Assembly (NCBI GenBank): GCA_965116925.1
Contig: OZ220744.1
Location: 5,280,001 to 5,344,000 of the forward strand
Origin: Candidatus Poribacteria bacterium
GTDB lineage: Bacteria; Poribacteria; WGA-4E; PCPOR2b
Reading direction: 5' to 3'
Length of the DNA stretch: 64,000 bases
Under the pieces are notes generated by a model that saw only the letters and a program-made list of their open reading frames with translations, did not search any database and had not been told where the DNA came from. Below are positions 1,872-3,699 of this stretch, piece by piece. The translations under genes and the position numbers were made by a program. Position 1 is the first letter of the stretch; the number at the start of each line of letters is the position of its first letter.

Positions 1872-2411
1872 TCAGTTTGTATTCAGTTTATCCCGAAACG
1901 CCTTCCTGAATTTCCGCACTTTCGGGTCAATGACCACTTGACAATACGGCTGATAGGGGTTCAGTCGGAAATAATTCTGGTGATACGCTTCTGCGGGATA
2001 AAAAACATCCACCGGCTCAATTTCTGTGACGATTGGATCCTTCCATAACCCTGAAGCATCGGTCTCTTCCTTTGATTTTTGTGCTATCTCTTTCTGTTCC
2101 TCACTATGATAAAAGATCGCAGAGCGGTATTGTGTGCCGACATCAGCGCCCTGCCGATTCAAAGTGGTTGGATCATGGGTACGCCAGAAAATGTACAGTA
2201 TATCTTCGTAAGAGATAACTTCAGGATCGAAACTAATCTGCACAACTTCAGCGTGTCCGGTGGTCTCACTGCAAACCTGTTGATAGGTTGGGTTTTCAAC
2301 GACACCACCTGAATAGCCGGAAATCACCTCATGCACGCCTTGGAGATCTTGATAGATAGCTTCGACACACCAGAAACATCCACCGGCGAGCGTTGCAGTT
2401 TCTTTGTTCAT
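1872..2411 (-). CDS. msrA: peptide-methionine (S)-S-oxide reductase MsrA
   Basis: GGCFWC active site, TGHAEVVQI, HDPTTLNRQGADVGTQYRS, AEAYHQNY. Confidence 0.97.
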   Translation of the reverse strand: MNKETATLAGGCFWCVEAIYQDLQGVHEVISGYSGGVVENPTYQQVCSETTGHAEVVQISFDPEVISYEDILYIFWRTHDPTTLNRQGADVGTQYRSAIFYHSEEQKEIAQKSKEETDASGLWKDPIVTEIEPVDVFYPAEAYHQNYFRLNPYQPYCQVVIDPKVRKFRKAFRDKLNTN

Positions 2412-3679
2412 CGAAATCTTCGCTGTGGAAACCCCGTCTTTTAAGGCGGGGTTTCCACAGCGCCTCCTTCTTAGATATAGTTAAAGTTTAATCGTGTGAG
2501 GACTTTGAAACTCTCACGTTTCGCAGACTGAGTGAGACGTTTGCCCTCCAACGAGTATAGAGAATACCCTTTTTTCTCCATATAGCCGCTAACACGAGTC
2601 AACCCGTGTGTTACATGTTTGACCAGCGTGTTCTTGGCTATGCCATTGCACATTGTACCCCCGTAGCGTGGGCGTCTGCCACCCTGCTGTGGGTTCTGTC
2701 TGTGCAATTGCCGCCGTGCAATGGGTATCGGACTGACATAAAACACACAGGTATTGTCCACTTGGTCTGTATCGCTTCCGATGACATGATATGCCAAGCA
2801 CCATGAGTCTACACAATGGGCGCTGAAGTCGTTCGACATCTTGTTGCCAGACTTCTGGAGTCCGAGCGAATCACGAATTGCCTTTGTTTCAAAACCTTTA
2901 AGTGTGACCAATATCCAACGGTTCTGGATTTCAGCGTAGAACCATTGCTTCCCTACCTCAAAGGGGCTAAAAGATTCGTTCCAGTGACGGGCACCCTTCG
3001 ACGTTCGTGCCTTGATATCGTCAACACAGACATGCGTTATCGGAAACATCGTGGACAGGTAGTTGAGGATTCGGAGTTTCCAATCCCACCGTGTCCGTGT
3101 GCCGGCGGGTAGCCGTTGTTGATTCGCCATGCGGTTGGTGCGGTGCTTTCGATTCGGACACTTCCGTGACCGTCTACCCCGTCTCAATTGACGACGTGTT
3201 TCAACTTTTTTGCTAACCTTGTTATGAGCGTCAGTTTGTACATTCAGATATGTCGATTTCCCTGACTTGACAGTGAACCCTTCCTTCTTGCTACCGGGGT
3301 CAATCCCAACGGCTATCTCTTGTGTTTGGGTGCCAGAGGGTTCGCCATTCAACCGTACGCAGAATACGCCATTCCGAAAAAACGGTGTGGCTTTACCGGA
3401 CTTCATCCACTTCCTTGCCCTTGCGGGTGTGGTCGGCATTAAGGGGTTACGATTTTTGTCAATGACAGGAACAAACATTGTAAATCACTCCTGCGGGTGT
3501 GTGTATTACCCCATCGACATCACGGAATCAGAGCGGAATCAGGCTTGGGGAGCACCTGAAACATCAGTTAGGCTGCCACGCCTTAGACCCGTGATATAAT
3601 CGTCTAGTCAACGGTTTAACGTGCAAGTGCCCGTTGGCACGGAATTGCAAGCCTCGCCCTTTAGGGCGGGGTTATTGAC
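2412..3679 (-). mobile_element. non-autonomous IS200/IS605-superfamily OMEGA element (omegaRNA + isrB, no tnpA)
   Basis: Left end reads GTCAATAACCCCGCCCTAAAGGGCGAGGC on the minus strand from 3679. A related right-end hairpin cgctgtggaaaccccgtcttttaaggcggggtttccacagcg lies at 2421-2462. Removing the element restores GGAGG-AACGT-ATG for msrA. Confidence 0.85.
2471..3478 (-). CDS. isrB: IsrB RNA-guided nickase-family protein (PLMP/RRXRR domain, split RuvC, no HNH)
   Basis: N-terminal PLMP, RuvC-I GIDPG, Arg-rich bridge helix RRQLRRGRRSR, RuvC-II VDDIK, RuvC-III HCVDS; 335 aa with no HNH/CxxC insert. Confidence 0.88.
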   Translation of the reverse strand: MFVPVIDKNRNPLMPTTPARARKWMKSGKATPFFRNGVFCVRLNGEPSGTQTQEIAVGIDPGSKKEGFTVKSGKSTYLNVQTDAHNKVSKKVETRRQLRRGRRSRKCPNRKHRTNRMANQQRLPAGTRTRWDWKLRILNYLSTMFPITHVCVDDIKARTSKGARHWNESFSPFEVGKQWFYAEIQNRWILVTLKGFETKAIRDSLGLQKSGNKMSNDFSAHCVDSWCLAYHVIGSDTDQVDNTCVFYVSPIPIARRQLHRQNPQQGGRRPRYGGTMCNGIAKNTLVKHVTHGLTRVSGYMEKKGYSLYSLEGKRLTQSAKRESFKVLTRLNFNYI

Positions 3680-3699
3680 ACGTTCCTCCATGTATATGC
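3479..3699 (-). ncRNA. omegaRNA (about 200-nt scaffold 3679-3479 plus a 5' guide from flanking DNA, about 3699-3680)
   Basis: Non-coding region directly upstream of isrB, starting GTCAA with a complementary TTGAC at about 3611-3607 and several hairpins; this is the usual position of IscB/IsrB omegaRNAs. Ends are approximate. Confidence 0.75.

Follow-up and report, generated by a model that had tools for sequence, protein, structure and literature searches.

How can a gene stay in use when a mobile element has come to lie between its ribosome-binding site and its start codon? The question is raised by msrA of Candidatus Poribacteria bacterium, which lies in the stretch of 64,000 nucleotides analysed here (contig OZ220744.1, positions 5,280,001 to 5,344,000; hereafter the window, whose numbering is used throughout). 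A 1268-bp insert (minus strand, 3679 to 2412) separates the native msrA Shine-Dalgarno sequence (SD) and five further bases from the msrA ATG. An earlier note on this DNA described the insert as an IsrB element with a strong hairpin near the ATG, and suggested that msrA, cut off from its SD, may be poorly expressed or may depend on excision. The features of the locus are collected in Table 1.

Table 1. Features of the msrA locus and of the element inserted in it (positions in the window).
Feature	Position	Strand	Remarks
msrA	1872..2411	-	179 aa, intact; sole PMSR gene found in the genome
ATGA	2408..2411	-	msrA start codon; TnpA target (TCAT, + strand); predicted IsrB TAM
Spacer, 9 nt	2412..2420	-	hairpin foot to msrA ATG
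IS200/IS605 element (IsrB + omegaRNA), non-autonomous	2412..3679	-	1268 bp; ends from sister copies and empty alleles
Terminal hairpin, 42 nt	2421..2462	-	TnpA left end
Element-encoded SD motif GAAGGAGG	2463..2470	-	likely replacement RBS; between isrB stop and terminal hairpin
isrB ORF	2471..3478	-	335 aa; PLMP, RuvC-I, bridge helix, RuvC-II/III; HNH absent
isrB codon 153	3020..3022	-	Asp for the RuvC-II Glu of homologues (private E153D); alignment to DtIsrB
Predicted omegaRNA scaffold	3479..3679	-	its first hairpin doubles as TnpA right end; region also kept in sister copies and in elements lacking an ORF
TnpA right-end guide CAAG; cleavage motif TGAC	3648-3651 (top strand); 3676-3679		
Predicted guide, 20 nt	3680..3699	-	host flank including the native msrA SD; by OMEGA layout
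Native msrA SD, GGAGG	3685..3689	-	now 1.27 kb from the ATG; all 17 empty alleles keep it, 5-6 nt from the start codon
DegT/DnrJ aminotransferase gene	3835..5067	-	co-oriented, upstream; adjoins msrA in empty alleles

The ends of the element follow from two comparisons that agree with each other. First, close sister copies, of which there are 15 with a protein identity of 88% or more, start with GTCAATAAC and finish with AAGATTTC(G/A) immediately 5' of ATGA; their flanks differ from copy to copy, and target duplication is absent. Second, a search of 19 same-genus genomes showed an empty degT-msrA junction in 17, and listed no match to msrA for the other two. All 17 empty alleles carry GGAGG before the ATG, at a distance of 5 nt in 16 and of 6 nt in one, and in five of them the spacer AACGT is identical. 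Thus, the insertion between the msrA SD and start codon is confirmed with exact ends, and the GGAGG-AACGT-ATG junction that the earlier note had reconstructed is real, since 17 of 19 same-genus genomes show the degT-msrA junction without the element, five of them with this very spacer. The subterminal hairpins at both ends, the fixed tetranucleotide target and the lack of a target duplication are those of an IS200/IS605 element. Elsewhere in the host genome there are two further full copies, about 94% identical in DNA, and a third with an internal deletion. Between degT and the element (window 3696-3835) lie REP-like inverted repeats, whose number differs among the empty alleles of the relatives.

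The protein encoded by the element has the architecture of an IsrB, with an N-terminal PLMP, a split RuvC with bridge helix, no HNH and a length of about 350 aa. It matches RRXRR (E=9e-37), and its best solved relative is DtIsrB (8DMB; E=1e-36, residues 3-280), again with the HNH insert absent. The catalytic triad of RuvC consists of D, E and D. Glu is found in 145 of the 147 RuvC-II motif calls, and both Asp calls come from the msrA-site copy; DtIsrB has the Glu, and so do all 14 close sisters compared. The triad is intact in the family and not in the msrA-site copy, whose IsrB is probably a weak or dead nickase. It follows from E153D that, for targeting, an IsrB would have to be provided in trans by a sister copy.

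A scaffold is predicted upstream of isrB. Its sole Rfam match, to HEARO, is weak and sub-threshold (E=0.13, 23.5 bits against a gathering score of 83), and its folding energy is uninformative (MFE z=-0.9). A search for self-targets, as the 12-nt guide seed followed by NTGA, gave 0 matches in the genome. DtIsrB and its omegaRNA (PDB 8DMB; Hirano et al. 2022, PMC9581776) share with the msrA element the PLMP, the split RuvC, the bridge helix and the lack of HNH. They also have a non-coding scaffold upstream, in which the transposon end forms the first stem, and an NTGA-type TAM, as is predicted for the msrA element. The predicted scaffold is about 200 nt long here, in contrast to about 280-300 nt in DtIsrB. 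DtIsrB nicks the non-target strand at a distance of 8-11 nt from the TAM (PMC9581776), and a DtIsrB-like nick, transferred to the empty msrA allele, would land in the native SD. The SD treated in the accessible text of that paper is isrB's own, not that of a downstream host gene. The ATGA target and TAM and the flank-derived guide put forward in the earlier note match the known OMEGA layout. Its further idea, that the ribonucleoprotein targets the empty msrA allele, fits this layout too, but the same holds for any donor joint and there is nothing special to msrA in it; the idea is generic because N|ATGA targets, an NTGA TAM and donor-joint targeting are already known.

According to the rule established for IS608, a DNA guide beside the hairpin pairs with the cleavage motif. 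The guides GAAA and CAAG predict the cleavage motifs TCAT and TGAC, both of which are present, and guide and target covary from one element to the next (TTTC-ATGA, TTTT-ATAA, TCCC-ATGG, TCCT-ATAG). The terminal hairpin has a predicted folding energy of -37.5 kcal/mol (z=-6.2), with its foot 9 nt from the msrA ATG, as had been claimed. Among 36 diverse ends, compensatory changes are seen in 6/6 outer-stem and 6/7 core pairs, and 97.6% of the stem cells are paired, which was equalled by 0 of 500 shuffles; this covariation is compatible with DNA or RNA function and does not separate the two.

In the msrA-site copy, the hairpin arm at 2452-2456 reads GGAAA in place of the TTCCT of the sisters, and the stem is near-perfect. 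This near-perfect palindromic arm is found in the msrA-site copy alone among 15 close copies. In the predicted fold, the top-strand TnpA guide GAAA (2428-2431, + strand) pairs inside the perfected stem. With the arm perfected, the guide is therefore predicted to be fully paired, with an unpaired probability of 0.0 versus 0.74-0.99 in four sisters. The genome has five Y1_Tnp matches, none of them intact beside a matching end; one (G000:C1:6296312-6296563) is an IS200-like TnpA that is apparently truncated, and the other four are RAYT-type by eye. From the folding model we infer that the msrA-site copy may well be immobilised, and perfection of the end hairpin is likely a route to immobilisation. 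End hairpins perfected to a full palindrome also occur in the unrelated L047, L136, L167, L241, L265 and G000:C1:5806551-5806609.

Other variants of the terminal hairpin were seen as well. A 24-nt insert with a REP-like palindrome lies in the loop region in 6 of 15 close IsrB copies (L069, at G000:C1:1985115-1986410, L037, L038 and L040-L042), where the hairpin between SD and ATG reaches about 66 nt; five of the six are still at gene starts. At G000:C1:4180779-4180830, a single-hairpin hybrid of both element ends, about 50 bp long, lies immediately before GTGA.

These findings bear on the suggestion that msrA stays mostly silent for as long as the element is in place, and that upon excision the IsrB ribonucleoprotein would nick the restored allele. 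Excision would restore the native RBS exactly, the genome has two sister IsrB copies with intact motifs, and empty msrA joints do occur in the contigs of one RNA run and of one other run. However, these joints belong to other strains, since their spacer letters differ and their flanks are 90-95% identical. Of the four sequencing runs compared (runs with small word shares were left out as evidence), two have exact flank pieces, and in the contigs of these two, which drop rare variants, no exact same-strain joint was found. This was the outcome of inspecting the assembled reads for the empty junction, as the earlier note had advised. The TnpA guide is predicted to be fully paired, no intact TnpA was found beside a matching end in the genome, and the element's own IsrB carries E153D. 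A switch of this kind seems to us very improbable. Excision-dependent expression of msrA in general is unlikely because the msrA-site copy looks disabled, by E153D and by the perfected hairpin, and against that claim stands also an msrA that is single-copy and intact. Compared with 10 relatives, msrA differs mostly by synonymous codons (26-57 versus 2-10), and it has no private amino-acid change. A promoter and terminator scan gave nothing decisive on msrA transcription, and the terminal hairpin scored as terminator-like on the + strand only. Two runs have a high-depth contig joint that lacks 316 nt of isrB (window 2818-3135), probably from an internally deleted sister element.

How, then, might msrA be translated with the element in place? 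The view, suggested by the earlier note, that msrA lacks a usable RBS is not supported, as the element end supplies an SD motif whose strength is roughly that of the native site; this motif, E153D and the perfected hairpin arm are absent from the note. Its pairing with this genome's anti-SD has a family median of -10.0 versus -9.3 kcal/mol for the native site. From GAAGGAGG to the msrA ATG there are 51 nt along the sequence and, by prediction, 9 nt with the hairpin looped out. The SD at the msrA-site end has a predicted unpaired probability of 0.79. The arrangement has the sequence features of a split RBS, as follows: an SD that is linearly out of range, a stable and conserved hairpin, and canonical spacing once folded, the last by prediction. 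We lean towards the view that the element 3' end is a replacement RBS, split and bridged by the hairpin, and that msrA is still translated from a transcript running through the element.

The SD motif lies in the same place in three coding states, namely after the stop codon, in frame as TAT-AGG-AGC and in frame as TGG-AGG-ACG. Protein-coding constraint as the source of GGAG is ruled out by these three states. The motif is also kept in opposite-strand TnpB elements and in ORF-less elements. These last two classes tell against plain coupling, in which ribosomes terminating on isrB, or initiation independent of an SD, would reach the msrA AUG once the hairpin melts, and the SD would be a tether: they keep the motif at starts without a terminating ribosome. 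The stem, at -37.5 kcal/mol, is also very stable for such melting. Termination-reinitiation is known (PMC6728339). The isrB stop abuts the motif at msrA, and in the clade of 60-72% identity it falls inside the loop of the hairpin. We consider coupling by itself quite improbable.

To return to the replacement RBS, the element family offers a comparison between ends with an ATG or GTG target and ends with other targets. A set of 164 ends was called automatically and clustered with the SD region left out. In the 9 nt that precede the hairpin foot, GGAG or GAGG is present in 49/71 end families with an ATG or GTG target versus 3/16 with ATAA, ATAG or GTAA; the end families are kin, so the p-values of this and the following end-family contrasts overstate. 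A control interval further upstream reaches the cut of -5 kcal/mol in 2/71 versus 0/16 families, and clustering at 75% gives 26/41 versus 1/8. In the non-Poribacteria subset alone the contrast is not significant. A cleaned set, from which six false or mis-called rows were dropped and in which the motif was counted before or after the hairpin, has GGAG or GAGG in 46/55 ATG/GTG-target versus 1/12 ATAA/ATAG end families, in 25/29 versus 0/5 at 75% clustering, and, by copy, in 95/126 ATG/GTG-target versus 8/32 non-start copies.

Some ends without a motif before the hairpin have it after the hairpin (L188/189, L266, L300). The same holds for the cyanobacterial L490, L491 and L496, where the spacing is ordinary and an annotated CDS begins at the junction; these three are among nine cyanobacterial plasmid loci examined of 15 matches, with an annotated CDS at the junction in 3/9 and the other ends not located. 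Once the hairpin is taken out, 70 of 78 ends have a spacing of 7-11 nt, which falls within the range of native sites, whose peak is at 6-9. A spacer of 8-9 nt was considered as evidence for an RBS and ruled out, because the spacer is identical in ATAA ends.

A second reading of the same ends regards the purine motif as a by-product that comes with the transposon end; copies at starts would survive only because the coding sequence is spared, and msrA translation would be reduced. Possible forms of it are opposite-strand TnpA recognition, an alternative hairpin with the CCTCC arm, copying of a quasi-palindrome, and a leader or terminator inherited from tnpB-type ancestors. The GGAGG is complementary to the element's own CCTCC arm, with a self-duplex of -4 kcal/mol or lower in 71 of 101 start-type ends, and the arm (TTCCT versus TGTAT) covaries with the target class just as the motif does. 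Many ATAA ends keep weaker AGGG or AGGA runs, one family even AGGAG, and the A-run before the motif in TnpB elements is a U-tail on the opposite strand. Among IsrB elements, the link between motif and start sites is weak (40/50 start-like versus 19/31, p=0.077), 10 of the 50 start-like sites having no motif in the span searched. Two further points weigh against a replacement RBS: the SD is predicted to be mostly open in just 48 of 84 ends, and the hairpin to be looped out is more than double the size of those in phage T4. However, the self-duplex is found in only 7 of 26 ATAA ends, which argues that pairing of motif and arm is no general need. The msrA-site copy has lost CCTCC, yet the full GAAGGAGG is kept; in some lineages the motif follows the hairpin and is normally spaced; and the only or best copies of housekeeping genes are intact behind such ends. 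We regard the by-product reading as rather unlikely, and as one to be taken seriously nonetheless.

Whatever the motif does, elements of this family lie at gene starts more often than their target predicts. Poribacteria IsrB loci of at least 60% identity had a usable 3' end in 120 of 134 cases and were collapsed by flank. Manual work added or corrected eight boundaries, and both ends are known for 86 sites. A site was called start-like if it opens an ORF of at least 80 codons whose frame is closed within 70 codons upstream. By this definition, 40 of 68 distinct ATGA sites, the msrA site included, are start-like. The backgrounds were drawn from this genome and from a crude gene caller. Among 12,000 ATGA sampled from this genome and put to the same test, 9.7% are start-like, or 18.5% outside long-ORF interiors; the gene caller gives 3.2% and 16.1%, and 29.5% when only starts and co-oriented intergenic sites are counted. 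Against this last, strictest background the 40/68 has p=5e-7. The start-like sites that also have a native SD remaining in the 5' flank (25/68) show no excess over the strictest background (p=0.12).

Of 58 junction ORFs, 53 were scanned: 38 match Pfam, and in 14 the domain starts within the first 15 residues. Behind the ends are found the only msrA, the only trpD to pass the cut-off and, in their respective genomes, the icd-sized and the leuC-sized copy. A second set, gathered by end pattern alone and with both ends, has start-like sites in 5/10 IsrB, 19/43 short ORF-less and 5/17 TnpB elements. The TnpB fraction shows no excess over the stricter backgrounds, and its difference from the 40/68 of IsrB is suggestive only (p=0.055). 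Beyond the Poribacteria set, an ORF of at least 60 codons lies downstream of 13/21 viral ends, versus 20-31% in the background, and of 10/18 metagenomic ends, versus 12-20%.

In L038 (G018:C1:759028-762617) two IsrB elements of the same orientation lie about 1 kb apart, both at non-start ATGA. In L140 the 8-mer AAGGAGAT stands in both the 5' flank and the 3' end, unlike the family's rule of no duplication. One genome (G063, L430-L469) has 90 matching ends, of which 40 were fetched. Many of these belong to ORF-less elements of 335-420 bp with a near-full omegaRNA-like scaffold (21 matches, about 190 nt, 80-97%) and a strong AGGAG(G) upstream of the hairpin.

Starting from the observed ends, target, empty allele, start enrichment, tie of the SD motif to ATG/GTG targets and covarying hairpin, we infer the steps that would follow the choice of target, as follows. 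TnpA, acting in trans, would select the tetranucleotide only and insert the element at ATGA wherever it occurs. Insertions inside genes would be purged, so that the excess at start sites would reflect survival. Insertions at starts would persist, the coding sequence being whole and the element end re-supplying an SD, and host transcription would supply the 5' guide, favouring retention of IsrB elements. The excess at starts is ascribed to survival because the gene is spared and because the host transcript provides this guide. On the transcript, a 30S subunit would use the SD across the looped-out hairpin, possibly with help from ribosomes that finish isrB at its stop codon a short way upstream. 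With the SD folded to within 9 nt of the ATG, msrA would therefore still be translated.

It is tempting to go further and to propose that ATG-targeting IS200/IS605 elements, among them the carriers of IsrB and IscB, from which Cas9 descends, are parasites of start codons. The ATGA of a start codon would serve as target and TAM, the guide would ride on the host transcript, and the element end would be a portable RBS, hairpin-bridged in most lineages and conventional in others, that restores host translation. At msrA, with the end locked and a mutation in the nuclease, an RBS of transposon origin would have become fixed before a single-copy gene. To this wider proposal we give an even chance. 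If it is true, it would explain why ATGA is so common among IscB and IsrB targets, and how a genome can have tens of copies before housekeeping genes without lethality. There would be a second route to harmlessness for IS200/IS605 elements, besides splicing, and a widespread natural split RBS with a hairpin far larger than the T4 examples. If it is false, the msrA element is an ordinary, decaying IsrB insertion.

The msrA element belongs to a known family, and the family pattern, gene-start sites together with the SD at the end, is the main finding here, rather than msrA targeting. ISC transposons have N|ATGA targets (Kapitonov et al. 2016, PMC4810608) and share with the msrA element the 5'-GT and CG-3' termini, insertion upstream of ATGA without duplication, and ends in common with opposite-strand TnpB elements. 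In the accessible text of that paper neither start-site enrichment nor a replacement RBS is mentioned, and the terms 'start codon' and 'Shine' do not occur in its main text. For the ISGst IscB and TnpB, donor-joint targeting and a guide from host read-through have been described (Meers et al. 2023, 10.1101/2023.03.14.532601); these elements also have a motif shared by TnpA and nuclease (TTCAT) and a bias to co-orientation with the upstream gene. The accessible text of the preprint does not treat effects on the downstream gene, and its main text has no 'ribosom-' words. The accessible text of the papers on Borrelia IS605 stem-loops at gene 3' ends, on the Microcystis mobilome, on Arc and on NovaIscB has nothing on a replacement RBS. 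In the literature searched we found no report of start-codon enrichment or of a replacement RBS; Altae-Tran 2021 with its supplement, the He 2015 review and ISfinder lie outside that literature and may bear on novelty.

Two known systems come closest to what we propose. IStrons, which combine a group I intron with IS605 and splice themselves out of the mRNA, are likewise IS200/IS605 elements that limit the harm to the host gene. Unlike them, the msrA element would stay in the mRNA and re-supply translation initiation. The other is the split RBS of phage T4, where a hairpin brings the SD from 22 to 5 nt in gene 38 and from 27 to 11 nt in gene 25 (PMC3014915, PMC7297116). There, as predicted for msrA with its change from 51 to 9 nt, a linearly distant SD is brought to working distance by a hairpin; the hairpin looped out in T4 has 16-17 nt, whereas that at msrA, in its predicted role, has 42 nt and is the end of a mobile transposon.
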